A DNA stretch of 32,000 bases. It comes from Candidatus Saccharimonadota bacterium (GTDB taxonomy: Bacteria; Patescibacteriota; Microgenomatia; UBA1406; GWC2-37-13). The notes below the pieces were generated by a model, which was not told the origin of the DNA, ran no database searches, and saw only the letters and a list, made by a program, of their open reading frames with translations. Location of the stretch: positions 600,001 to 632,000 of the forward strand of contig MGBH01000001.1 in assembly GCA_001790095.1 (NCBI GenBank). The letters run 5' to 3'. The position numbers and the translations under genes are program-made. Shown piece by piece: positions 2,766 through 32,000 of the stretch (position 1 is the first letter of the stretch; each line of letters starts with the position of its first letter).

Positions 2766-4296
2766 AACCACACACCCATCTTTCAAAAAAGACTTGATGG
2801 AATACGCGTTTCTCTTTACGATAACAGCCTTTATTATGAAGTTTTCCCTCGTAGTCAAATCCATAGATGGGAACGGTATAGGGGATAATGTAAATTTCCT
2901 TTTCAAATATCCATTCGGTCTCAATGTTGCGAAGCTCCTTTACGGGTAAACCTCGATAATAGAGAAGCGGATCAGATGAAGGGAGGATCATATATATGGT
3001 TTTATTGAGGGGAAGAACCTGCGCCATACTTTTCCAATCTTCGCGGTGATGTAGAGGGAAAAAAAGATATATCAAAGAAAGAAAAAGAAATATACCGATA
3101 AGTATCTCCATAATTGCATTCTCTCGTATCTGATGAATAAGCTTTTTTTCTTGGTTCTTTTTGAAAAAATGCAGGAAATGGAGAAATCCTTTCTTTTTCT
3201 TGATAGACAGATAATGTTCTACTCCTTCAGCTATCAAAATACTCATAATAGGCAATAGATATAAGAATCGAAAATACTGCATGAGCGGGGAAAAAAAAGA
3301 AAAAATAAATCCTAGTAAAAGCGGGAGGGAAAAAATAAACGCTAATCTTTTTGCTTTAAATGCTCCAAGGATTACATATGAAAATACAAAAGAAGTCCAT
3401 AAACCAGCGATTACATAATATAGAAATTTTGGGTAGAAGCTGATTCTACCAAATGCAAATTTTATCGGTATAAGAAGAAGGTTCTTAATGGTGGCGGGAC
3501 CTAAGACCAAAGCCCAGTTTTGAGCCTCTTTTTGGAGCACCTGTGCATTATGAAGTTGTGTAATCAAAAGGGGAAGCTGCAATGCAAAAGATACAGATAA
3601 TACGACCACCGTTATCCCCACCTCTTTATATCTTTTTTTGGTAAGTAGAAGCAATAAGAAGCTTGCGACAAAAAATATACTTCCATAAAAGGTCCATAAA
3701 GCAAGTATAAGAAACAGATTAAAAAACAAGAGCAAAATTCTTTTTTCTTTAATGTCAAATATACTCACCACGCTGTCTCTTCGGATTAGCTTTTGGCGGA
3801 TAAAATCGATAAGAGAATATATATGGCCATTGAGGCGGTGTTTGTGGGTATTTTCATGTAGCCGCAAAAGTTCAAAACCGAAATATGCGGCAAAGGCAAG
3901 CAAGAAAGTGACAAGAGAATACATCCGTGCCTCCTGAGAATAATAGACCGCAAGAGGATTAAATAAGTACAACGCAGCTGCCCATAGTCCAAACTTTTGA
4001 TTTCTTATACGCGTTGCTATGAGAAAGACAGCATGTCCGGTCAAAAGCGAGAAGATTACTGAAGGAAGACGAAGCGCGATTTCGCCTACACCAAAAAGGG
4101 TGCTCCATAACTTCATAAAGAGATAATAAAGAGGTGGATGAAAATCAGTTGGCGAAAAAAGCGAGGAGATTTGAAAAAGGGTAAATTGCTTTATCACTTT
4201 GGCTGTGATCGCTTCATCCAACCATAAGGACTGATTGAGGGAGATGAGTCGAATGATAAATGCCAAACCAAAAACAAGCATGAACTTCTTTCTCAT
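2728..4296 (-). CDS. GT-C fold membrane glycosyltransferase (ArnT/PMT-like, family 39/83 type)
   Basis: 522 aa and multi-pass. The first periplasmic loop reads NQSLWLDEAITAKV, which contains the DE(A) motif. FHPPLYYLFMKLW follows, as is typical of ArnT/PMT_2-type enzymes. A C-terminal soluble domain is present. Confidence 0.7.
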   Translation of the reverse strand: MRKKFMLVFGLAFIIRLISLNQSLWLDEAITAKVIKQFTLFQISSLFSPTDFHPPLYYLFMKLWSTLFGVGEIALRLPSVIFSLLTGHAVFLIATRIRNQKFGLWAAALYLFNPLAVYYSQEARMYSLVTFLLAFAAYFGFELLRLHENTHKHRLNGHIYSLIDFIRQKLIRRDSVVSIFDIKEKRILLLFFNLFLILALWTFYGSIFFVASFLLLLLTKKRYKEVGITVVVLSVSFALQLPLLITQLHNAQVLQKEAQNWALVLGPATIKNLLLIPIKFAFGRISFYPKFLYYVIAGLWTSFVFSYVILGAFKAKRLAFIFSLPLLLGFIFSFFSPLMQYFRFLYLLPIMSILIAEGVEHYLSIKKKKGFLHFLHFFKKNQEKKLIHQIRENAIMEILIGIFLFLSLIYLFFPLHHREDWKSMAQVLPLNKTIYMILPSSDPLLYYRGLPVKELRNIETEWIFEKEIYIIPYTVPIYGFDYEGKLHNKGCYRKEKRVFHQVFFERWVCGFISSSCTHIQQG

Positions 4297-21232: not shown

Positions 21233-22843
21233 TTATTCTTGCAATTTGATAATTTTTTTATACACCTCAAGGTCATTGTGTTTGTACACCAAGAAAAAGT
21301 CTTGGTCAGATCTAAGCTTGTCGTATGCGGTTGCCATGATCTCTTTTTGCCACCCCTTTTTTGCCTCGTTAATAGATACTATAACATAATCCGCTTGTAC
21401 ATAATAATCAGAAAAATTGTAAAAATACCGGCGTGATGTAAAATAAGGAGCAAAGTGGCCGGTTGATGAGATCTTTATATATTCATCGCTTAGTTCCTTA
21501 CTCAATTTTTTTATAGCAGGTAATGTTTGAGGTACGTGCGTAAAAGCATATATGTCTTTTTTTTTCGCATACGGCAAGGGTCCTTCAAGATATGATACAA
21601 AAAGCAAACCTATTAAAAATAGAGTGCTCAATATAACAAAAATTCTATCTTTACCAAACTTTATTTGTATATTTTTTTGGGAAGAAATAAATGAATATAT
21701 AGAATGAAATCCATGTATGGCAGAAATAAATACAAAAGGAGTGATGACAGCAGTGTAGTGATAAATTATGTTTCTCATATTAAAACTTGTTGAAAGGAGA
21801 TTTATTGCAAATTCAGGAAATACAATCAACAAATGTGGCAAAGAAAAAACCGACAAAAATCCAACCGGACTTAAAAGCTGATAAAAATAAATAAGTGTGT
21901 CTTTGCGATATATGTATCTTAAAAAGTGAGTAAGATCGCTGTAATAATCTAGGGCAAAATGCCCACCCTGTGGTCGGGCAAGCGGAATAATGATCTTCAT
22001 CGAGATAAAAAACCATACTACGCTTACTCCAATCACGATGAGCGGAAACCACGCCTTAAGATGTTTTTTCTTCAGTGAGACAATATACTCTGATATTTCT
22101 TTCTTCTTTGGTAAAAATAAATCTGAATTTATGGTCTTATAAAGTATAAAAAAACCAAAGAAACTAGTAGTAAGACCCATATGCTCCTTGGTTAAAAGAC
22201 TTAAAAAAAGAAAGAATAAACTCCATGCATATTTTTTTTTACTCCAGAAATAATACATGAAAAGAAGAAATGAGGTAGAAAGAGTAACCGCATGAAACTC
22301 ATAAATGACAGCCCTTTGAAGCGGAGGATAAAAAAGATAGGAGAAGGCAAAAATGACACTTATCAATCTCTGCTGACTATTTTTTTCAAATACTTTTAAC
22401 GAGATATTAAAAACTGCCCATGCACCAAGTCCTACCACTACTGCCTGAAGGACTAAAAGAGTAGATGGCCCATCATGCAAAAAATAAAGCGGGGAAATGA
22501 GCGCAAGAAACAAATCATTATGGATTGCCATACGCTTTACCTGCTCAAATCCATGAGGGTTTGTCATCTCGAGAAACCGTGAAAAATCAAATGTCTGAAT
22601 AGCTCTATAGGTGTTATATACCGTCTGATGCATGATGCCCAGATCAAAATATGAAGCAACCAGTCTTTGATAACGCAGTACGGTATAAACCGAAAAATAA
22701 ATACTAAATATCAAAATACCCGCCCAAACTAGTATATTTGATACCTGTTTTCCTGTTTTTTTTTGTCTAATCATTCTCTTGTTTTTTACTTCTAAGTTAT
22801 TTGTTTGCTCTTTTTTATTTGTTTCCCGAATGGTATTTCTCAT
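21233..22843 (-). CDS. DUF2079-family polytopic membrane protein (GT-C-like candidate)
   Basis: 536 aa. SYFDLGIMHQTVYNTY follows the first helix, which I recall as the DUF2079 signature region. Many helices follow. The alternative start M24 at 22774 would remove the 29-nt overlap with xer. Confidence 0.6.
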   Translation of the reverse strand: MRNTIRETNKKEQTNNLEVKNKRMIRQKKTGKQVSNILVWAGILIFSIYFSVYTVLRYQRLVASYFDLGIMHQTVYNTYRAIQTFDFSRFLEMTNPHGFEQVKRMAIHNDLFLALISPLYFLHDGPSTLLVLQAVVVGLGAWAVFNISLKVFEKNSQQRLISVIFAFSYLFYPPLQRAVIYEFHAVTLSTSFLLFMYYFWSKKKYAWSLFFLFLSLLTKEHMGLTTSFFGFFILYKTINSDLFLPKKKEISEYIVSLKKKHLKAWFPLIVIGVSVVWFFISMKIIIPLARPQGGHFALDYYSDLTHFLRYIYRKDTLIYFYQLLSPVGFLSVFSLPHLLIVFPEFAINLLSTSFNMRNIIYHYTAVITPFVFISAIHGFHSIYSFISSQKNIQIKFGKDRIFVILSTLFLIGLLFVSYLEGPLPYAKKKDIYAFTHVPQTLPAIKKLSKELSDEYIKISSTGHFAPYFTSRRYFYNFSDYYVQADYVIVSINEAKKGWQKEIMATAYDKLRSDQDFFLVYKHNDLEVYKKIIKLQE

Positions 22844-23750
22844 GAACCTCTCTTAATCTGGCGTTTGTCACATGGGTATAGATTTGGGTCGTTGCAATGT
22901 TTTTGTGCCCAAGCATCTCCTGGACACTTCGCAGATCTGCTCCGTGTGATAACAAGTCCGTAGCAAAACTGTGACGCAAAGCATGAGGTCCTATCTTATC
23001 TAAAATCCCTGATTTTTTTCTGTATTTATCTACCATCCGTTCGATCGAACGCACTGAAAGCCGTCTTTTTTGATCCGTAAGATTGTCATCACTTGGTCCG
23101 CTGTAGCGGATAAAAAGAGATGCGTATGGATCTTTGCGCATCGAAAGATATTTTGTTAACCATTCCTTTGCTTTTTGCGATATGAATACAACCCGCATCT
23201 TACCTCCTTTTCCCAATACCCCAAACTCTCCCGCATCCAAATTTACTTTTTCGCGGTTTAATGCGGCAAGTTCTGAGACACGAAGACCGGTTGAGAATAG
23301 TACTTCAAGTATGGTGCGATCACGTACCCCTGGTTCATCTGTTGTATCAACACTCCTAAATAATCTCTCCAGATCATTTTCAGACAAAAATTTGATATTA
23401 CGATCGCGCAGTTTTCCAAGCTCAATCATGTCAGGGGAGAGAACAGGAAGTTTTTGTTTGACAAGATAGCGAAAAAAAGAACGAAGCGCCACCAAAAAAT
23501 AGTTCTGAGTCTGCCGTTTGAGATTGCCCTTAAATGGATTTTTGTAGCTGTGTGAAAGATAGAGCCGGAAGTTTCGGATCATGTTTTCATCGATTTTTTC
23601 TACGTCATAGTCCTGCAGGTTAGTCTGTGCAAGAACCCACGATTGAAAAAATTGCAAGTAATACCCGTACATCTTGACAGTCTTGAGAGAAAGGTTGCGA
23701 TCAAGCTCACTATACTCAAGAAAGCGTAAGATTCCCTCTTTTATTCCCAT
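22815..23750 (-). CDS. xerC: Tyrosine recombinase, XerC/XerD type
   Basis: 311 aa with an N-terminal SAM-like domain. The catalytic region reads GLRVSELAAL...HALRHSFATDLLSHGADLRSVQEMLGHKNIATTQIYTHV, giving the R..HxxR..H..Y residues. Confidence 0.85.
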   Translation of the reverse strand: MGIKEGILRFLEYSELDRNLSLKTVKMYGYYLQFFQSWVLAQTNLQDYDVEKIDENMIRNFRLYLSHSYKNPFKGNLKRQTQNYFLVALRSFFRYLVKQKLPVLSPDMIELGKLRDRNIKFLSENDLERLFRSVDTTDEPGVRDRTILEVLFSTGLRVSELAALNREKVNLDAGEFGVLGKGGKMRVVFISQKAKEWLTKYLSMRKDPYASLFIRYSGPSDDNLTDQKRRLSVRSIERMVDKYRKKSGILDKIGPHALRHSFATDLLSHGADLRSVQEMLGHKNIATTQIYTHVTNARLREVHEKYHSGNK

Positions 23751-23837
23751 ATATCCATATTAAACGACGTTGAAGAAAAAAACAAGTTAATTGAGGCGTT
23801 TACACTGTAGAAGTAAATCAAAAACTTTTATTTTCAG

Positions 23838-23920
23838 TGCCGGGGAGAGGACTTGAACCTCCACGATCTCACGATCACAGGTTCCTAAAACCTGCGTGTA
23901 TGCCATTTCACCACCCCGGC
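23838..23920 (-). tRNA. tRNA-Leu (anticodon UAG), class II with long variable arm
   Basis: The reverse complement is GCCGGGGTGGTGAAATGGCATACACGCAGGTTTTAGGAACCTGTGATCGTGAGATCGTGGAGGTTCAAGTCCTCTCCCCGGCA. The anticodon stem is CAGGT/ACCTG with loop TTTAGGA. Confidence 0.9.
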
Positions 23921-23921
23921 A

Positions 23922-23968
23922 TTACCCGCTCAGATCCAGTTATAAAATAAGTGGACTTGAGCGGGTTA
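23922..23968. other. Long imperfect hairpin abutting the tRNA-Leu 5' end
   Basis: The arms are ttacccgctcagatccag and gtggacttgagcgggtta. There are 9 perfect base pairs (ACCCGCTCA/TGAGCGGGT), then a G-T wobble and an A-C mismatch, then 4 more base pairs. The loop is about 11 nt. Confidence 0.5.
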
Positions 23969-25095: not shown

Positions 25096-25324
25096 GAACC
25101 AAAAAAAGAAACCGCCTGGCGTGCTCGAAAAGCTTGAGCACAAAATGATGTCTAAATGACATCGACGGTTTTAAAAATACAACCGAAAGCAAAGAAGAAA
25201 TCCTGGTCTGGGGATAATACCAGAGGCAGCATGCGGCTGCGTATTGCATAGTTTGTTACCCTTACGGATTCATCCGAAAGGGAGCCGAAACCGGCTTTAA
25301 ACAACTCATATCAATACATTTCTT

Positions 25325-25362
25325 CTCAACCTAAGAAAATAATATTATTTTCTAAGGCTGAG
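25325..25362. terminator. Bidirectional hairpin between convergent genes
   Basis: The sequence is ctcaacctaagaaaataatattattttctaaggctgag. It has a 10-bp perfect core, AGAAAATAAT/ATTATTTTCT. The stem is extended by CCT/AGG and CTCA/TGAG around single mismatches. It sits 5 nt from the stop of the minus-strand gene. Confidence 0.5.
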
Positions 25363-25367
25363 AATTG

Positions 25368-26324
25368 TCAAAGAAGAGTTAAACTTTCAAGTATTATTTT
25401 TTCAAACTCAGATTCGGGCATAGATGAGTTGTATAATAATATGGTTTTGTCTTTAAGGGACAATCCATACCCATAGTTCTTTCCGATGATGATCGCGCAC
25501 TCTGGTAGTTGACATATGGCATATGACATTTTTACAAACGTATTGTTGTGCAATGTTATATCCGTAGTATTAAGTTCTTGGGCTGCCTGAGGTTGCTGAT
25601 AAAGTACCATAAGGTTTTTTGTATTTATTCCAACAGACTTCTCATGTGAGATTTCTCGCAACCAAAAAGCTTCTTTATCCGTGGCATAGAATCTAAGATC
25701 AATTTCGGCAGAATCGCTTGATATCGACTTAATTTCATAATCTACAGGGTATGTAAATATATATCCGTCTCCATTATAGGTAAGCAAATTTTCCCTTGAT
25801 AGAGTTGGAATAGGAGTAGGGGATAGGTCGTTTTTCAAGATAGACACGCCTCCGCATAGCACCTGATCTATGCTAACAGTATCTTTTATTGTCTCAAGAT
25901 AAGAAATAAGTGACTGAGTGTCTTTGACTTCAAATTCCAAACTTGCAGGAAGGACCCCTTCTCCAATCAATGAATTATCTATATCTGGATTCATCTTGGT
26001 AAAAATTGACAAAGCTTCGCTCTCACTTACGTAGGTAACAGAATTACTTATATGTTTATCAAGAATGTTTTTTTTAAGCTCAAAAATCTGATCTTCGCGA
26101 GCTTCGTTGGTAAAAAAAATAGTGCACTTTCTTGAGTATTGCTCTTTAAGCTGCAGTGCTTTTTCAATCGGCTGTCCAAGCAGAGACTCTATTTTAGCTT
26201 GTTTTCCTTTCATCTCATTATACTTCCGTTCAATCTCTTGATACTTCTTGATACCCGTATAAAAAGCAGCTCCTACTAAAAAAATGAGAAGAACGATGAA
26301 GATAGCTTTAAATAATTTTCTCAT
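25368..26324 (-). CDS. Single-pass membrane protein with an FtsX-extracellular-domain-like module and a C-terminal domain of unknown function
   Basis: It has an N-terminal anchor, IFIVLLIFLVGAAFYTGI, and a coiled-coil stretch. IFFTNEAREDQIFELKKNILDKHISNSVTYVSESEALSIFTKMNPDIDNSLIGEGVLPASLEFEVKD resembles the FtsX ECD consensus (V.YvSkeeAl...NPLPasfev). The other FtsX helices are absent. Confidence 0.45.
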   Translation of the reverse strand: MRKLFKAIFIVLLIFLVGAAFYTGIKKYQEIERKYNEMKGKQAKIESLLGQPIEKALQLKEQYSRKCTIFFTNEAREDQIFELKKNILDKHISNSVTYVSESEALSIFTKMNPDIDNSLIGEGVLPASLEFEVKDTQSLISYLETIKDTVSIDQVLCGGVSILKNDLSPTPIPTLSRENLLTYNGDGYIFTYPVDYEIKSISSDSAEIDLRFYATDKEAFWLREISHEKSVGINTKNLMVLYQQPQAAQELNTTDITLHNNTFVKMSYAICQLPECAIIIGKNYGYGLSLKDKTILLYNSSMPESEFEKIILESLTLL

Positions 26325-26369
26325 AATAATTATGCTGACCTGATCTAGTTTGATACTATTATATCATAT

Positions 26370-26399
26370 TTGAATAATGTGGGTAGTCCAGAGTATAAT
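26370..26399 (+). promoter_or_regulatory. Candidate sigma-70 promoter TTGAAT-N18-TATAAT driving the tRNA-Ser / GIY-YIG locus
   Basis: ttgaat is at 26370-26375, followed by an 18-nt spacer and tataat at 26394-26399. It lies about 20 nt upstream of the tRNA-5'-like fragment at 26421. Confidence 0.4.
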
Positions 26400-26418
26400 T
26401 TGATATACTGGGAACCTA

Positions 26419-26434
26419 TTGGAGAAATCGCCTA
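26419..26434 (+). repeat. Duplicate of the tRNA-Ser 5' end (acceptor 5' strand and D stem), 15/16 identical to 26775-26790
   Basis: ttggagaaatcgccta compares with ttggagaagtcgccta. A second piece, gttggtttat (26500-26509), is 10/10 identical to 26791-26800, the D loop of the intact tRNA. Confidence 0.8.
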
Positions 26435-26499
26435 CCCTCTCAAGATTTTTGCAAAAAAATCTGAGCGGGCCCGCTCGCAAGCGAAACGCGCCGAGCGGG
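26435..26499 (+). repeat. 65-nt GC-rich palindromic insertion that splits the duplicated tRNA 5' fragment
   Basis: An A/T hairpin is present (ctcaagattttt / aaaaaaatctgag). GAGCGGG (26463-69), CCCGCTC (26470-76) and GAGCGGG (26493-99) follow. The central CCCGCTC can pair with either flanking copy. The 8-bp stem CCCGCTCG/CGAGCGGG encloses GCG-AAA-CGC. Confidence 0.6.
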
Positions 26500-26524
26500 G
26501 TTGGTTTATAATGAATCAATCGAT

Positions 26525-26791
26525 ATGTATTATGTTTATGTACTTGAAAGCAAAAAAGACCGCAAACATTATATTGGATTCACTGAAGACCTCAATCGAA
26601 GAATAATAGAACATACAAAGGGTGAGGTTGAAAGTACAAAAAAAAGAAGGCCATTAGAGTTAGTTTATTATGAGGCATATAAATATGAAAAAGACGCAAG
26701 GAGACAAGAATTGTTATATAAAACTGGCCAAGGAAGAAGAATATTGCAAAAAAGATTAAGAAATAAATTCGATCTTGGAGAAGTCGCCTAG
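26525..26791 (+). CDS. Small stand-alone GIY-YIG nuclease-domain protein (UPF0213/COG2827-like)
   Basis: MYYVYVLESKKDRKHYIGFTEDLNRRIIEH carries the GIY and YIG beta-hairpin motifs. Conserved R and E residues follow downstream. The track start at 26501 is a TTG inside the repeat, and the domain begins at the ATG at 26525. The last five codons and the TAG stop lie inside the tRNA-Ser gene. Confidence 0.8.
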   Translation: MYYVYVLESKKDRKHYIGFTEDLNRRIIEHTKGEVESTKKRRPLELVYYEAYKYEKDARRQELLYKTGQGRRILQKRLRNKFDLGEVA

Positions 26792-26864
26792 TTGGTTTAT
26801 GGCGCAGACCTGGAAAGTCTGTATGGGCGCAAGCCTATCGCGAGTTCGAATCTCGCCTTCTCCG
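26777..26864 (+). tRNA. tRNA-Ser (anticodon GGA), class II
   Basis: I folded it by hand. The acceptor stem is GGAGAAG/CTTCTCC. The anticodon stem is CAGAC/GTCTG with loop CTGGAAA. The variable arm TATGGGCGCAAGCCTATC is 18 nt. The T arm is GCGAG-TTCGAAT-CTCGC. The discriminator is G and the length is 88 nt. Confidence 0.9.
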
Positions 26865-27111
26865 CATTTTGATCGAAAGTTCTACTAGTCCCTTCTACCC
26901 TCTCACTTTGGCCCTTCAGGACTTGCTGAAAAATCGTAAGAAACATTAATACTCCTCAAACAGTCCTGTAGAATGAAAAACAGTCTAAAAAGCCCTCAAG
27001 GTAAATGCTCTTGGTTCTAACCTTTTTGCGTTATTTAGGTTGTTGGAGTCTTCTTTGGCACTTATGAGGTTTCGTTCGAATCCTTCTTCCTATTCTCTTA
27101 ATGTATTGAGG

Positions 27112-27948
27112 TTACAAAGGATTTTGTTTTGCTCTTTTAATCGTTCCAGATTTCAAATCCTCTTCAACCCAATCTCCATTTTGATCAATATATTGTTTCC
27201 TAATATCACCCTCCATAAACATCACTGGTTTTACCCCTTCTTTTGAAATTATGAAGGTTTGAATTGTTCCACCTATTGTTTGATTATTCGCAGATTTAAG
27301 ATAACTCTTACATGTCTCACAAAGTATTATGCCTTTATTTTGAGCACCAGGAACAAAAAATAATTTGGGATACATCTCTGTAATATCTTTTTCAAAATCT
27401 TTTCCTGATCCAGTAGCTGTATAGTCCCATCCGACCGTTGAAGAAATACGCCCGTCAGGAAAGTGCTGTTTTATTAATAATGGTGTTGGGGCAGGAATTT
27501 TAGTTTTTTTATTCTTTGGAGTTATTTTTATTGTCTTGATTTTTTCTGGAATAAAAGAATTATTTTTATGTAAATTCAACATTTGGATTAACTTATTAGT
27601 CCTAACAACATATGGTTCATTTATCATTGCTGAGTATATAAATATTATTTCAGGCTTTGATGAAATTAAAAGTTTATTGTAAGCCTCAATTGCATATGAA
27701 GTTATGTCTTTCAAAAATTTTGAAGTGTTTTTGTCTTGTCTTGATGAGGCAAATATGGTTATTTTCTCAATCAATTTACAGGTAAAAACAACATCGTTTG
27801 TTGTAAATGAGATTAGCGAATGTGATGATAATTGATATATCTTCTTTAATTCATCCTTAGGAGGTTTTATATTATTTTGGTAGGATATTCTACTATCACT
27901 AAAAACAATCACCTCATCTGCAAATCCGACCGATGCAATCAGTGTCAT
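27112..27948 (-). CDS. Proteasome beta-subunit / HslV-like N-terminal nucleophile (Ntn) hydrolase homologue
   Basis: MTLIASVGFADEVIVFSDSRISYQNNIKPPKDELKKIYQL places Thr at position 1 after Met removal. It also places Asp at 17 and Lys-Lys at 34-35. From memory, Thermoplasma beta reads TTTVGI...ATERR...KNGKKLFQI and HslV has T1/D17/K33. Later, YTATGSGKDF matches the (A/S)TGSG loop. An insert of about 45 aa and a C-terminal extension of about 60 aa are extra. Confidence 0.55.
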   Translation of the reverse strand: MTLIASVGFADEVIVFSDSRISYQNNIKPPKDELKKIYQLSSHSLISFTTNDVVFTCKLIEKITIFASSRQDKNTSKFLKDITSYAIEAYNKLLISSKPEIIFIYSAMINEPYVVRTNKLIQMLNLHKNNSFIPEKIKTIKITPKNKKTKIPAPTPLLIKQHFPDGRISSTVGWDYTATGSGKDFEKDITEMYPKLFFVPGAQNKGIILCETCKSYLKSANNQTIGGTIQTFIISKEGVKPVMFMEGDIRKQYIDQNGDWVEEDLKSGTIKRAKQNPL

Positions 27949-27967
27949 GCAGATATTTTATCACTAG

Positions 27968-29284
27968 TTATACCAGTATTAATCGTCTTTGAATTAGCTC
28001 AAATTTTGAGTAGATCCCTCCTAGAATTTTAAGCCTCTCTTCCGGTGTTCCATACTGAAGTACGTGAAGTAGATAATCCTTGAGCATCTGTATTTGTTCT
28101 TCCTTTGGCTGAATATCTATATTTAATCCATCATTGTATTTGGTTAATTCAAGTTTTGAATTTTTTTCTTTGAGAACAGTGTTTTTTATATGCTGAAGTC
28201 TTGTTATTTCGTTTTGGAACTCAGAGAGAAGAAGTGAGGTTTTGAGTTTAATATTTGGAAGATGGACGACAAGCTGTTTTATTAATTCTGTTTCGGTAAT
28301 ATACGGTTCCTTACATGTATAGTCTTTTTTACGATTACAGTGGTAATAGATATGAGAATGAACTCGATTGTTTATTAAATGTTTATATTTAATCTCTGCA
28401 GTCACACTTCCTCCACAGGTTCCGCACTTACATATCTTTTTGAAAGGGAATAATTGCTTGTTCCATTGTTTTGGCGCAACCTCTAATTGTATCTGTACTT
28501 TTTCAAATATCTGCTTTGAAATTATCGGTTCATAATTACCTTTGTATCTTTTATTACCATAGACAAACTCTCCATAATAAAAAGGATTACGAAGGGCAAC
28601 ATATACTTTACTCAAATGCATTAGGCAATTATTTTTTGTCCTATATCCAATATCATCCAACCACTTCTTTACCATTCGTCCTGAAAACCCTTGGTTAGCC
28701 ACCTTAAGAAACATCTCTCGAACAATCGGAGCTCGTTCTTCGTCAATACAAACGGTTGATATTCTATTTGCCCTAAGGACATTTTTATAACCAATTGGTG
28801 CAAGTCCCGGTCGAATACCAAATTCACATTTATTCCGCAATCCTCTTTTTACATTGACGCCTCGATTATCGTTTTCTAATTTTGCTTGGCTACATAAAAT
28901 CATAAGAAGAAATTTTTCATTTGGATTGTTTGAAAATGACTGAGAATATGTCCGAATGGTTTGTAGTTTTCCCTGATCCATGAGATCAACAATCCTACCA
29001 AGATCACCTGCATTTCTACTCAACCTATCAGGAGCCCACGTGAGAATTGCATTATATCTATCGTCAATTAAACCTTGAAGTAAGTTGTTAAACTCAGGTC
29101 GTTGACCAGATTCTTTTGCAGAATGGCTTTCAGTTATTACTTCAGTCACAAACAGCTTCTCTTTCTTTGCCATCGCCTTCATTTCGCTCAGTTGTCCATC
29201 AATACTCATTGCTTGGCGCTCATCAGATTCTGACGATTTCCTTGCATAAAGACAATATTTTAGATTGTTTTGAAGCTCTCCCAT
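27968..29284 (-). CDS. Large serine recombinase (integrase)
   Basis: The resolvase-type N-terminus reads CLYARKSSESDERQAMSIDGQ (catalytic Ser), followed by LTWAPDRLSRN. A recombinase domain follows, then a zinc-ribbon CKCGTCGG...YYHC and a C-terminal coiled-coil. The track start is a TTG. The ATG at 29284 has GAGG four nt upstream. Confidence 0.85.
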   Translation of the reverse strand: MGELQNNLKYCLYARKSSESDERQAMSIDGQLSEMKAMAKKEKLFVTEVITESHSAKESGQRPEFNNLLQGLIDDRYNAILTWAPDRLSRNAGDLGRIVDLMDQGKLQTIRTYSQSFSNNPNEKFLLMILCSQAKLENDNRGVNVKRGLRNKCEFGIRPGLAPIGYKNVLRANRISTVCIDEERAPIVREMFLKVANQGFSGRMVKKWLDDIGYRTKNNCLMHLSKVYVALRNPFYYGEFVYGNKRYKGNYEPIISKQIFEKVQIQLEVAPKQWNKQLFPFKKICKCGTCGGSVTAEIKYKHLINNRVHSHIYYHCNRKKDYTCKEPYITETELIKQLVVHLPNIKLKTSLLLSEFQNEITRLQHIKNTVLKEKNSKLELTKYNDGLNIDIQPKEEQIQMLKDYLLHVLQYGTPEERLKILGGIYSKFELIQRRLILV

Positions 29285-29331
29285 ATACCTCAAAGGTATC
29301 AGTATGGTTGTGTAAGTCAAGGCAATATTAA

Positions 29332-30789
29332 TTAAAGTCGATGAAAGAATCTATAAGCATCAGAATCGACCCCAAATGCCCGAGCTTTCCTTGGATTATG
29401 TTTTATGATTTGTAGAATAAGCATTGAGAAGGCATCGGCCAAATCGTCATGTCTTTCAACTCCAAAACTTACTAACTGGCTAATAAGTTGATCTGCTCCT
29501 TTTCTTGGAAAGAGCACTTTTCCATTTTGAATCCAACTGGTCGTTTGTGAGATTCGGGCCCGCTTATCAGCTCCAAGTAGTTTTACTCCTTGGACTTGGA
29601 GCCCTTGCTGATTAAGTTCTTGAATGACAGCTGCTTGATACGCAACATCTTCTACAAACCACTTACGCACTATCTCATTTTGTTTTTCATTCTCTTTGAG
29701 TATTGTTTGGATTGTTTTTGGGAAATCCATTCTTCGATTAATCGGGAAAGGACTTATATATATCTTTGTATCCTTATCAATACCAAAGACATATCCTGAA
29801 ACAATTGCGGTGAAATCTGCTGTTTGTTTTTCAGATATTGCTAAATCAACAGAAAATGCAAAATATCGAAAGTTGTTGCTTTGGGTTAAACTCGGTAATT
29901 CGTCATAATAACAAATCCACTCAGGTCTTACAACGATATCGTTATCAGGGACAATGGTTAATAAATATTCTCTTTGAAATGCAATGTGTCCAACTCGACT
30001 TCTCTCTTGATCTATCGACTCTCTATCTGGATATTTGCCCGGCCAAATGATCACATCCTCATTTGTCAAAAGTGGGTAAGCTTTAAAAATTCGTTTTTTA
30101 TTTTCTTTATTCCCTTGTTCTTTTAATCGCATGATAAGAGAGTCTTCGTGTAACAAGTTACCAATAACGACAACTTTTGTATTAATGTCACCCATAGGAA
30201 TGAGTTCTCCTGTGAACCATTGATATGTTTTATCTCTTCCTTCTTGGGTTTTGACTGTGTTTATATCCTCTACATCGTCACAAATAATTAAATCTGGTCG
30301 ATATGCGCCGTGACGAAGTCCACGTATTGATTCGTTCGCAGAAATAGCAAGAATTCGTGTCCCATAGGGACCGATTATAAGTGAGTCTGCTCTCCATGCA
30401 TCATTCTCTTCGGCAAACGGGCCAAAGTCTTCAATTAACAAACTATTTGATTCAAGTTCATTTTTGATCTGATACAACAATGTTTTGCTTTGATTTTGTG
30501 TCAAGCTCGCAACAACAATACATTTCTTTTGAGGTGTTCCAAGCATAGCCCACAAAGGATAGGAAAGAGTCATTATGGTTGACTTCGCAGACCCTCGAAA
30601 AGATACTATCACAGCGTCTTTTATGTTTTCATTCTCGGTTATGTTGAATATTTCTTTATGAAAATCTGCTGTCTTAAATTTGACGTAATGACTGAGGTAT
30701 ATGTGGAAAAACCAATAATGGCTTTTCATTGCAAGGTTTTTTCGAACTCCTCGATTGTGAATAATCTTCTGTAAAACATCATGATCCAT
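29332..30789 (-). CDS. Phage terminase large subunit (ATPase plus RNase H-like nuclease)
   Basis: The Walker A-like motif is SFRGSAKST and Walker B is PDLIICDDVED. The C-terminal nuclease acidic motif is HDDLADAFSM. The track start is a TTG, and the ATG at 30789 overlaps the upstream stop. Confidence 0.8.
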   Translation of the reverse strand: MDHDVLQKIIHNRGVRKNLAMKSHYWFFHIYLSHYVKFKTADFHKEIFNITENENIKDAVIVSFRGSAKSTIMTLSYPLWAMLGTPQKKCIVVASLTQNQSKTLLYQIKNELESNSLLIEDFGPFAEENDAWRADSLIIGPYGTRILAISANESIRGLRHGAYRPDLIICDDVEDINTVKTQEGRDKTYQWFTGELIPMGDINTKVVVIGNLLHEDSLIMRLKEQGNKENKKRIFKAYPLLTNEDVIIWPGKYPDRESIDQERSRVGHIAFQREYLLTIVPDNDIVVRPEWICYYDELPSLTQSNNFRYFAFSVDLAISEKQTADFTAIVSGYVFGIDKDTKIYISPFPINRRMDFPKTIQTILKENEKQNEIVRKWFVEDVAYQAAVIQELNQQGLQVQGVKLLGADKRARISQTTSWIQNGKVLFPRKGADQLISQLVSFGVERHDDLADAFSMLILQIIKHNPRKARAFGVDSDAYRFFHRL

Positions 30790-31213
30790 TATTTTCCACT
30801 TTTTCAACTTCTAACGACGGCGAAAATGATGCGAGTTCTAAAGCTTTATTTATAAGTAATTCTTGTTCTTGAGTAAGAGGAATATTCTCATTTTTTACTT
30901 TTGCAGTAAGTTCAATCCTATTTCCATATTGTCTGTGATTATGTTTTAACCAAAAGATTATTGCTGTTAAATCATTATTTTGAATTGCCTTTAAAAGTTG
31001 CGATTCGGCAAGATCATTTATGAAGTTACGACCAGTCGCAATAGATTCATCAGCCTTACGAACAAACTCTTCATCTTCATTTCGCCAACGATAGTATGTA
31101 GAGCGTCCAACCCCCGTCTTTTCACACGCAATTTGAACAATTGGCACTCTCTTTAGTTGTTCAATGAGAAGTTCTTTATTCTTTTCAATTCGTTCAGTAA
31201 TTGAATTACTCAT
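30779..31213 (-). CDS. HTH protein, terminase small-subunit-like
   Basis: 144 aa. The N-terminal helix-turn-helix reads IACEKTGVGRSTYYRWRNEDEEF. The gene lies immediately upstream of the large terminase and overlaps it. Confidence 0.55.
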   Translation of the reverse strand: MSNSITERIEKNKELLIEQLKRVPIVQIACEKTGVGRSTYYRWRNEDEEFVRKADESIATGRNFINDLAESQLLKAIQNNDLTAIIFWLKHNHRQYGNRIELTAKVKNENIPLTQEQELLINKALELASFSPSLEVEKVENNGS

Positions 31214-32000
31214 ATAGTTTAATAGCTTTTTTGCCGGTCAGTTTTTGCCAGCGATTTCTAATCACTTCTGCATAAATTGGTGATTTTTCCATGAGGAAAC
31301 AGCGACGTTTCATTCTTTCACAAGCTATAAGAGTACTTCCTGATCCGCCAAATGGTTCGGCGACTAAATCTCCTCTTTTGGTAAGTACTTTTATGTAAGG
31401 AATCAATATTTCAATTGGCTTTGTGCCAAAGATAATACCTTGTCCTGAGCTTTTTTCATCTGCAGCATGGTACTCTATAAAATCTGTCGGTTGATATTTT
31501 TTCCCCTTCTTATATCCTTCCCATTGAGGTTTTCCTGCGATTGCATAAAGTGCAGTTTCATATTCATTTTGTAATCCGTCACCTTCGCTTTCATAATTGA
31601 ATTCAACATCAACAGTCTTACTAGCTCCCACCATTGCAATATCGTGTTTACTGAAAAACTTATACTTTGCTGCAAAACCTTGATTCCGGTTTGGCAAATG
31701 CCACACAATCATATTCTTTACCTTCCAATACTTCTCCATGACGCCCCATATTGTTCGTATATTTTTCCAATTCTCATAGACAATTATTGAAAAATGTTCC
31801 CCTTGGATTTTGGCAATGCTTCCCATCCATTTTTCAGTAAAGTCAGGAGGAAGTAGATCCGTTTCTAGGTATCTTCGATCTCTCTTTGCTCCAAAACCCG
31901 TTACTGCAGTTCCATGTTTTTTCTTTCCATTAAGGTAGTCGAGAATATAGGGAGGATCTGTAAAACACATATCTGCCTTTTCACTTCCGAAAAGTTTTAG
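31206..32000 (-). CDS. DNA methyltransferase (N6-adenine/N4-cytosine class, DPPY motif); N-terminus outside the window
   Basis: KADMCFTDPPY is catalytic motif IV. EPFGGSGST near the C-terminus is the AdoMet motif I. The reading frame stays open from 31970 to 32000 (LKLFGSEKAD), so the listed ATG is probably internal. Confidence 0.8.
   Translation of the reverse strand, partial: LKLFGSEKADMCFTDPPYILDYLNGKKKHGTAVTGFGAKRDRRYLETDLLPPDFTEKWMGSIAKIQGEHFSIIVYENWKNIRTIWGVMEKYWKVKNMIVWHLPNRNQGFAAKYKFFSKHDIAMVGASKTVDVEFNYESEGDGLQNEYETALYAIAGKPQWEGYKKGKKYQPTDFIEYHAADEKSSGQGIIFGTKPIEILIPYIKVLTKRGDLVAEPFGGSGSTLIACERMKRRCFLMEKSPIYAEVIRNRWQKLTGKKAIKLYE

Follow-up and report, generated by a model that had tools for sequence, protein, structure and literature searches.

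Background

In fungal mitochondria, mobile open reading frames (mORFs) are free-standing endonuclease ORFs that enter a conserved gene and bring with them a duplicate of that gene's terminus, as in the gene hybrids at Allomyces atp6 and at Glomus atp6, atp9, cox2 and nad3 (PMC3630166). Ssn proteins (SsnA of Neisseria meningitidis; cd10448) are single-domain GIY-YIG nucleases that act site-specifically on single-stranded DNA and bind hairpin repeats (NTS/SRM) flanking their own gene (PMC11893778). SegB of phage T4 is a free-standing GIY-YIG homing endonuclease encoded in a cluster of transfer RNA (tRNA) genes; it cleaves tRNA-gene DNA and promotes the inheritance of its own region (PMC2330249). 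In bacteria of the candidate phyla radiation (CPR), GIY-YIG ORFs occur in non-intron insertions within ribosomal RNA (rRNA) genes that resemble intervening sequences (IVS), in an account that does not mention tRNA genes (PMC11270868). Here we analyze a small GIY-YIG gene that runs into a tRNA-Ser gene and is preceded by a second, interrupted copy of that gene's 5′ part. It lies in a 32,000-nt stretch of a Candidatus Saccharimonadota genome (contig MGBH01000001.1, positions 600,001–632,000), hereafter the window, to which all unlabeled coordinates refer.

We consider it probable (roughly 0.68) that this locus belongs to a large family of Patescibacteria (CPR) elements, each a hairpin-associated, tRNA-targeting selfish GIY-YIG cassette that colonizes the 5′ half of a tRNA gene. 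We classify the finding as a combination of known kinds, namely a selfish, free-standing GIY-YIG ORF that comes with a duplicated gene terminus and a hairpin-associated minimal nuclease. The searchable literature, whose coverage is incomplete, yielded no published account of a GIY-YIG gene lying against the 5′ end of a tRNA gene, nor of duplicated tRNA 5′ parts, in CPR bacteria.

The resemblance to fungal mORFs lies in the arrangement: in the window and family-wide, an endonuclease ORF sits between two copies of a host-gene terminus, one of which completes the gene, so that the gene stays intact and its native terminus is displaced as an extra copy. Native and inserted mORF termini can differ through horizontal transfer, and locus L012 (below) offers a comparable case. 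In contrast to mORFs, the duplicated end is the 5′ rather than the 3′ end (a mirror image), the host gene is a bacterial tRNA gene rather than a mitochondrial protein gene, and the nuclease is a bare 80–90-aa domain. The displaced copy, moreover, is interrupted by a conserved hairpin module and is itself conserved, not decaying.

With Ssn, the family shares a single-domain GIY-YIG protein of about 90 aa with GC-rich hairpins at its own gene, the hairpin sequence co-varying with the protein. It departs from Ssn in that the hairpins differ in sequence and are confined to tRNA 5′ regions, whereas those of Ssn are scattered in hundreds of copies; among solved structures the nearest are UPF0213 proteins and not an Ssn protein, and neither tRNA association nor gene-fragment duplication has been reported for Ssn. 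SegB is likewise a GIY-YIG gene embedded among tRNA genes, but it is larger, has a DNA-binding part, lies between intact genes in a phage, and lacks the tRNA 5′ duplication, the hairpin module and the overlap of ORF and tRNA. The CPR rRNA insertions involve the same host group, the same general protein family and stable-RNA genes, and one sister locus of our family (L052) is exactly of this type. They differ in lying inside rRNA, where they are bracketed by inverted repeats in the present data; rRNA tolerates fragmentation, whereas the tRNA-associated cassettes duplicate the 5′ part of the gene instead. Finally, the insertion sequences IS200/IS605 and the REP/RAYT systems (repetitive extragenic palindromes and REP-associated tyrosine transposases) are also small elements whose enzyme is tied to subterminal or nearby DNA hairpins and which have ORF-less hairpin derivatives. 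Their HUH enzymes differ from GIY-YIG in fold and chemistry, GIY-YIG cleavage being hydrolytic with no covalent intermediate, and the present cassette has a single hairpin module, on one side only, and a long target duplication.

A tRNA-Ser gene with a duplicated 5′ part

The functional tRNA-Ser(GGA) gene is complete at 26777–26865 on the plus strand (ARAGORN; Rfam RF00005, 56.7 bits). The original prediction held that its first part occurs twice, and this is what we find. Upstream on the same strand, stub A (26421–26434) copies tRNA positions 1–14 with 13/14 identities, and stub B (26500–26509) copies positions 15–24 with 10/10. Together with two leader nucleotides (26419–26420 in the upstream copy), positions 1–14 form a first repeat, TTGGAGAAATCGCCTA (26419–26434) against TTGGAGAAGTCGCCTA (26775–26790), identical at 15/16 positions and the sole match at up to two mismatches on both strands of the 32 kb. 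The second repeat, GTTGGTTTAT, is shared exactly by 26500–26509 and 26791–26800 and recurs exactly nowhere else in the window. Both upstream pieces are collinear, with stub B resuming the tRNA numbering right after the segment that separates them.

That segment is exactly 65 nt long (26435–26499), with 58% GC in a region of about 37% GC. It had been described as a GC-rich palindrome; the length and composition stand, but it consists of two adjacent hairpins and not of one palindrome. Hairpin 1, of CTCA type, is CCCTCTCA-AGATTTTTGCAAAAAAATC-TGAGCGGG (26435–26469, plus strand), and hairpin 2, of CTCG type and a member of the S-type CCGCTC/GAGCGG family, is CCCGCTCG-CAAGCGAAACGCGC-CGAGCGGG (26470–26499, plus strand). 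Folded together as RNA they reach −33.3 kcal/mol (RNAfold), and as DNA the stub region has a folding z of −3.9 relative to shuffles.

A 15-nt spacer (26510–26524, plus strand) leads from the end of the stub to the start codon of the single-domain GIY-YIG nuclease gene (26525–26791, plus strand; 88 aa, Pfam PF01541), whose real start, by homologue comparison, is the ATG at 26525. Its stop codon TAG (26789–26791) is made of tRNA positions 13–15 and its final codons, G-E-V-A, are tRNA sequence, just as the original prediction had read them. The unit bounded by the repeats measures about 356 bp and holds the GIY-YIG ORF and no recombinase. Also as predicted, a promoter-like TTGAAT-N18-TATAAT (26370–26399, plus strand; 10/12 consensus match) stands 21 nt 5′ of the stub. 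We presume it to be the original tRNA-Ser promoter, now driving stub, ORF and tRNA. Weaker promoter-like sites are present within the ORF, and the window contains no good promoter near the functional tRNA-Ser. Rfam recognized only the tRNA itself in the inserted segment, both at the gathering threshold and at E≤1. We therefore rejected an inserted RNA element of a catalogued family, such as a group I intron: nothing but the tRNA matches Rfam, and the complete, uninterrupted tRNA needs no splicing.

The same architecture recurs at many tRNA genes

We sampled 80 genomic loci by alignment of ten close relatives, 19 metagenomic loci by hairpin pattern and one Logan contig, a set biased toward close relatives and toward one hairpin pattern. 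ORFs were called tRNA-type when a co-oriented tRNA starts −20 to +60 nt from the ORF stop. By this definition 43/103 ORFs on the expected strand (39 of them non-redundant) are tRNA-type, spanning 17 anticodon classes; the targets include Ser-GGA/CGA, Thr, Asn, Lys, Ile, Ala, Gln, Met, Gly, Val, Phe, Trp and Pro. Chance adjacency to a tRNA is expected for about 0.2% of ORFs, a rough estimate that supposes a genome of ~1 Mb with ~45 tRNAs. Eight ORFs, the window's among them, read into the tRNA and stop in the D-arm, which is why several database proteins end in "GEVA".

At least 24 tRNA-type loci carry the first 9–36 nt of their own tRNA again, 50–130 nt 5′ of the ATG, the copy starting exactly at tRNA position 1 or 1–2 nt earlier. 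The original prediction had proposed a search for other GIY-YIG genes abutting tRNA 5′ ends with the same duplication, and these loci are of that kind. Gapped alignment gives a common layout, in which tRNA positions 1 to N are followed by a GC-rich hairpin of 28–79 nt, tRNA positions N+1 to M, 0–20 nt, the ORF from its ATG, and the complete tRNA. Across loci N is 6–35 and M is 14–43, so the window (N=14, M=24) is typical, and the tRNA numbering usually runs on across the hairpin without target duplication. The prediction's central proposal, that a GIY-YIG cassette entered the 5′ part of the tRNA gene and supplied a replacement 5′ segment, gains support from this recurrence: cassettes like the window's ~356-bp unit occur at the 39 non-redundant loci, each stub fits its own tRNA, and sister lineages are insertional.

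The taxon labels of several contigs from metagenome-assembled genomes (MAGs) look unreliable. Loci L001, L004, L006, L008, L025, L063, L066 and L069, labeled "uncultured Gammaproteobacteria bacterium", have CPR gene content and a CPR-type cassette and are probably mislabeled bins. Behind the cassette of L013 (3267–3340; Paceibacterota MAG), ARAGORN calls a "tRNA-Stop" with anticodon TTA, which may be suppressor-like or mis-assigned.

Stub and hairpins are conserved with the tRNA

The closest relative, L103, encodes a protein 77% identical to that of the window, has different flanking genes and shows exactly the same junctions. Its internal split repeat matches at 14/14 and 10/10 positions in the same order as in the window; this, together with the analogous repeats at dozens of loci, shows that the repeat is not due to chance. 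Between window and L103, identity is 13/14 in stub A, 32/39 in hairpin 1 (stem conserved, indel in the loop), 29/30 in hairpin 2, 10/10 in stub B and 87/89 in the tRNA. It is 4/11 in the leader, 10/15 in the spacer, 53/84 at third codon positions of the ORF and 36/120 downstream. In this comparison stub and hairpins (93–100% identical) are about as conserved as the tRNA, while third codon positions (63%) and flanks (about 30–36%) have diverged. Taken with the presence of hairpins in nearly all tRNA-type loci and the link of hairpin type to protein clade, this makes stub and hairpins a maintained component of the system rather than debris.

Six loci with hairpins after anticodon position 34 extend this comparison. 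Their stubs match their own tRNA at 34–35/35 positions, while the tRNAs differ between genomes at 16–30/35. Stub and own tRNA remain nearly identical as tRNAs diverge and synonymous sites saturate, so the two are kept alike; this could come about because they go on recombining, because the element inserts again and again, or because the stub itself is under selection. The arrangement of two loci indicates that the repeats do recombine. L095 (3760–4604), inside a 328-kb contig, has a perfect tandem of a 378-bp unit (tRNA-Ser 1–35, double hairpin and ORF) ahead of a complete tRNA, and L009 (1–455) begins with a matching junction of ORF end, stub and hairpin. In L012 the stub, though a well-formed tRNA-Ser 5′ half, differs from the functional tRNA at 7/30 positions (23/30 identical), a pattern as expected if incoming DNA had replaced the resident tRNA.

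Rearranged forms are varied. L090 (2180–2480; equal to L091) lacks an ORF; its tRNA-Ser stub is interrupted by hairpin modules at three points, following positions 9, 25 and 35, and stands before an intact tRNA-Ser. L092 has hairpin-stub modules on both sides of the ORF and shares the window's N=14 junction, L034 has two stub units ahead of one tRNA, and L025 has two different GIY-YIG ORFs stacked ahead of one tRNA. In L007 and L066 ORFs lie on both sides of a tRNA, and in L014 the stub is decayed or deleted.

Hairpins belong to tRNA 5′ ends and follow the protein

Nearly all tRNA-type loci have a hairpin module between the start of the tRNA stub and the ATG. The median folding energy of their upstream regions is −41 kcal/mol, compared with −20 in control windows from the same loci (p=2e-19), and 89% of these regions reach −30 kcal/mol or lower as against 11% of controls. 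The 8-bp outer stems co-vary: the first/last pair is C-G in 18 and T-A in 30, the eighth pair A-T in 33 and G-C in 20. In the protein clade with the motif QEL(F/L/Y)YKTGQG, which includes the window, all 15/15 loci have S-type CCGCTC/GAGCGG hairpins and tRNA-Ser only, and hairpins of the S-type family accompany no other clade. The clade with REKYFKTGFG has P-type CCCGCCCGC/GCGGGCGGG hairpins in 13/16 loci and many tRNA identities. Hairpin type thus agrees with protein clade in 28/31 loci of the two clades.

Querying JGI metagenomes with the S-type double hairpin gave 19 loci, 16 of them at tRNA-Ser and/or a GIY-YIG ORF. Two of the others, L088 and L094, lie near a contig end, so that their context is largely unseen; the S-type hairpin of L099 has no adjoining GIY-YIG ORF or tRNA-Ser, its neighbors being tRNA-Pro and tRNA-Ala genes on the opposite strand. 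Among the 66 tRNAs in the fetched loci, just two that do not adjoin a GIY-YIG ORF have such a hairpin upstream. In the window the hairpin motif occurs twice (0 expected), both times at a tRNA 5′ end, and across the roughly 0.5 Mb of fetched loci such hairpins hardly occur outside GIY-YIG/tRNA stubs. These distributions led us to reject a dispersed palindromic repeat of the REP or miniature inverted-repeat transposable element (MITE) kind.

The second copy in the window is a solo hairpin (23925–23965, minus strand) with stem CCCGCTCA...TGAGCGGG as in the cassette, 4 nt 5′ of tRNA-Leu(TAG) (23837–23920, minus strand) and without ORF or stub; it could be a cassette relic or an independent hairpin insertion into the tRNA leader. 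We found no second GIY-YIG copy or pseudogene in the window, including near this hairpin. A gene for a XerC/D-like tyrosine recombinase (22815–23750, minus strand) lies just 3′ of the same tRNA-Leu. Separately, many database representatives (P0004 and P0010 among them) carry N-terminal extensions of 20–40 residues where gene calls run through the hairpin module, as in "...KNLSGSAHLL...". The window's hairpins translate likewise, as "QKNLSGPARKRNAPSGVGL", and the extensions in databases are likely artifacts.

A minimal nuclease under purifying selection

The 88-aa protein matches PF01541 over residues 1–67 (E=6.1e-14; 52.5 bits, cut-off 22.6) and has no other domain. Y5, Y16, G18, R26, H30, E50 and E62 are invariant in 32 homologues and fit the conserved GIY-YIG active-site motifs; by analogy, they would have the corresponding catalytic roles. 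Among solved structures, its profile is closest to the UPF0213 proteins 1zg2 (BH0048; 2.3e-12) and 1ywl (EF2693; 6.6e-9), followed by SLX1; single-domain size and closest similarity fit the stand-alone GIY-YIG proteins (about 80–110 aa) of the UPF0213/YhbQ-like group. Neither Pfam nor the homologue alignment revealed a separate DNA-binding module, the protein being the catalytic domain alone; a nuclease so built probably recognizes a DNA structure or its cognate hairpin. A word index gave about 400 homologues, which where named are a "GIY-YIG nuclease family protein" of Patescibacteria/CPR, and a full profile search gave 24,203 cluster representatives at E≤1e-3. The ratio of nonsynonymous to synonymous divergence (dN/dS) between the ORFs is 0.03–0.16 with dS above 1 (saturated), indicating strong purifying selection.

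Inverted repeats and split genes in sister lineages

Outside tRNA genes the family looks different. Co-varying inverted repeats of 10–28 nt stand directly before the ATG and after the stop of 38/57 non-tRNA ORFs, compared with 2/42 tRNA-type ORFs, both AT-only. At L018 (1769–2059), L037 (2979–3275), L042 (390–672) and L074, an ORF so bracketed splits a 23S_rRNA_IVP (four-helix-bundle) gene at the conserved sequence ...SIPSN|IAEG..., and joining the gene halves of L042 and of L074 gives in each a full PF05635 domain (Pfam). Relatives outside CPR (Chlorobi, Cloacimonadota, Deltaproteobacteria and others) have 12-nt co-varying inverted repeats, CCCYGTNRARTA/TAYTYNACRGGG; besides the split IVP genes, the bracketed non-CPR loci are L035, L044, L045, L056, L057, L062, L073 and others. 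In L052 (2295–3670) the ORF (3001–3237) lies inside a 23S rRNA gene in an IVS-like insertion with CCCCCACACC-type inverted repeats, and in L075 the ORF (3001–3186) lies 260 nt 3′ of the RNase P RNA (2403–2738). These sister lineages, which split 23S_rRNA_IVP genes and sit in a 23S rRNA gene, are clearly insertional; as judged from these loci, the family as a whole seems to insert into or beside stable-RNA-related genes and to be tied to palindromic DNA in every case.

A model for the cassette

The cassette would consist of a minimal single-domain GIY-YIG gene and a cognate GC-rich DNA hairpin module. Upon insertion, the native tRNA 5′ end would be left beside the promoter as a stub (here positions 1–24, broken after 14 by two hairpins), with the nuclease ORF placed behind it and a complete tRNA regenerated just downstream; the tRNA would remain complete because its 5′ part is duplicated. 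tRNA genes are rich in hairpins when single-stranded. The nuclease may nick or cleave tRNA-gene DNA, probably recognizing a hairpin or cloverleaf structure, and insertion would generate or propagate a 20–45-bp duplication of the target's own 5′ part. Since one clade occupies many tRNAs, each with an own-tRNA stub, the duplication must arise at insertion. It could stem from staggered cuts or from recombining with a donor that carries a tRNA; gene conversion alone cannot create the first stub. The hairpins may be the nuclease's cis-acting binding or cleavage sites, by analogy with the NTS/SRM repeats of Ssn and with the inverted repeats of the sister lineages. A stub, once present, could provide the left-hand homology for copying the element into alleles that are still uninterrupted, as in the fungal mORFs, and the identity of stub and tRNA may be kept by continuing recombination or re-insertion between copies. 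In the window, ORF and tRNA probably form one transcript from the old tRNA promoter, as no good promoter is close to the functional tRNA, and RNase P would then free the tRNA. Such an element could not be silenced without losing the tRNA.

More tentatively, and with less confidence than in the cassette itself, the family may represent an unrecognized class of mobile element that parasitizes stable-RNA genes. A bare GIY-YIG domain would read DNA hairpins, both its own module and the cloverleaf arms of single-stranded tRNA genes, and insert with an unusually long duplication (20–45 bp) of the 5′ half. The tRNA would thereby be rebuilt and the element trapped, with an essential gene on one side and that gene's promoter on the other. 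The stub would serve as homology arm and the hairpins as the site for the enzyme, continuing recombination would maintain their identity to the tRNA, and the sisters with inverted repeats would be the equivalent in rRNA and IVP genes. If the cassette model is right, a selfish element is widespread in the tRNA genes of CPR bacteria, its protein family counting thousands of cluster representatives, and duplication of the 5′ half is how it has managed to invade an indispensable 75-nt gene. The model would link Ssn-type minimal nucleases with hairpins, fungal mORFs with replacement termini and the insertion-rich stable-RNA genes of CPR. It would give a testable function to a very large set of unannotated "GIY-YIG nuclease family proteins" and supply candidate small nucleases guided by structure or by hairpins. 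Annotation would be affected too, since the architecture would systematically yield tRNA 5′ fragments, ORFs that run on into tRNAs, and over-extended N-termini.

Evidence against a mobile cassette and alternative explanations

Several observations weigh against a selfish, mobile cassette. Strong purifying selection with saturated dS fits long residence, possibly with a host benefit, equally well as a homing cycle. Recent mobility is not demonstrated by the sequences: near-identical cassettes in different contexts are missing, an all-vs-all blastn of cassette regions giving pairs at ≥85% identity only where the loci were the same or syntenic. The empty junction (promoter flank joined to an uninterrupted tRNA) had 0 matches in JGI metagenomes, where this organism is sparsely sampled. 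Synteny was no more informative: the FtsX-like neighbor of the locus had no homologue besides itself in 5.8 billion proteins, and a tblastx comparison of the window flanks with every fetched locus revealed no synteny. The hairpin lies within the duplicated segment at variable positions, and no single-step insertion model that we devised fits this; judging from identical hairpins at different tRNAs (below) and from solo hairpins, it also appears partly independent of the ORF. Co-transcription of stub, ORF and tRNA does not seem to be general and is no more than probable in the window, −10-like hexamers being equally frequent across loci just 5′ of functional tRNAs and of stubs. Lastly, the Ssn motif SRM (HGTCWY..YYVSBRH..WNVSBRG..RNCYNB) occurs 0 times in the window and within 250 nt of the ORF in 0/43 tRNA-type cassettes; membership of the window protein in Ssn, where this motif allows a sequence-based test, is not supported.

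Some of these points would suit a domesticated operon, in which the host has adopted the GIY-YIG gene as its own (as a nuclease for repair, DNA uptake or the tRNA locus, for example) and stably co-transcribes it with tRNAs, stub and hairpins form a conserved leader acting at the RNA or DNA level in expression or processing, and any mobility is ancient. The low dN/dS with saturated dS, the lack of an empty site and of near-identical copies in different contexts, the tRNA-like conservation of stub and hairpins between window and L103 and the very large size of the family (24,203 cluster representatives) all agree with it. We nevertheless regard it as unlikely, because one protein clade at no fewer than 12 tRNA identities, each with an own-tRNA stub, requires repeated new insertions. 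A leader would also have to accommodate hairpins that sit anywhere from position 6 to 35 of the stub with no fixed relation to tRNA structure, as well as the decayed stub of L014, the ORF-less L090, the tandem in L095 and the piled-up paralogues of L025, L049 and L066, and the sister lineages disrupt IVP genes.

The original prediction went on to suppose that a palindromic element later struck the displaced 5′ stub; spelled out as a rival, a simple GIY-YIG homing cassette would have left a dead stub that an unrelated MITE- or REP-like palindrome hit by chance. That part did not survive and now seems improbable, since nearly every tRNA-type locus has hairpins, and these seldom occur outside the stretch from stub start to ATG, fit the protein clade in 28/31 loci and return at the same junctions in near-identical form in L103 despite saturated neutral sites. 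What speaks for independent palindromes is an identical 38-nt hairpin (38/38), CCCGCCCGCCTCGCATACGCGAGAGCGTTGCGGGCGGG, in two different MAGs, at L019 2942–2979 (tRNA-Thr 11|12) and L026 2951–2988 (tRNA-Ala 21|22), where the adjoining ORFs are 79% identical with dS 1.4. The three modules in the single ORF-less stub of L090 and the solo hairpin beside tRNA-Leu in the window point the same way.

tRNA genes are classical integration sites, and a prophage-like block with a large serine recombinase lies just 3′ of tRNA-Ser, so the repeat might be read as an attachment-site (att) duplication by an integrase element using this gene. This is very improbable, because the repeats enclose 356 bp with a GIY-YIG ORF and no recombinase, the prophage lies on the opposite (3′) side of the tRNA, and serine recombinases, to our knowledge, create no long duplications. 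L103, with the same repeat, a DUF218 gene downstream and no prophage, and the dozens of other loci without a nearby integrase effectively refute it. Chance similarity or an assembly chimera can be dismissed: short repeats do arise by chance in AT-rich DNA, L100 (a contig of the same organism) ends inside the hairpins and contigs L101 and L102 diverge inside the ORF, but the 16-mer and the 10-mer each have a unique, collinear second copy in 32 kb, a tandem version lies within the 328-kb contig L095, and the identical arrangement in the independent assemblies L101, L102 and L103 refutes it.

Neighboring genes and variant assemblies

An 11-nt repeat, CTACCCTCTCA (26432–42 and 26895–905), was considered as a degenerate hairpin or stub copy 3′ of the tRNA and rejected as not significant (z=1.6). 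The 5′ neighbor of the locus, the FtsX-like gene, lies on the opposite strand. The prophage-like block occupies window 27112–32000, directly 3′ of tRNA-Ser, where L103 has its DUF218 gene. Its genes are all on the minus strand: an unknown ORF with a weak proteasome-like match (27112–27948), the large serine recombinase (27968–29320), a terminase large subunit (29332–30807), a helix-turn-helix small-terminase-like ORF (30779–31213) and a DNA methylase (31206–31970).

Two independent ENA assemblies of nearly the same organism, L101 (1–1348) and L102 (1–673), match window 25317–26693. They carry the promoter, stub, hairpins and GIY-YIG codons 1–57, followed by an Ice_binding-like ORF (more than 429 aa) that the window lacks; the 3′ end of the GIY-YIG ORF, tRNA-Ser and the prophage are not at that place in this variant. 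The breakpoint falls after window 26693, and the junction shares ATGAAAAAG (window 26686–26694), so the variant could be a microhomology deletion or an alternative arrangement.

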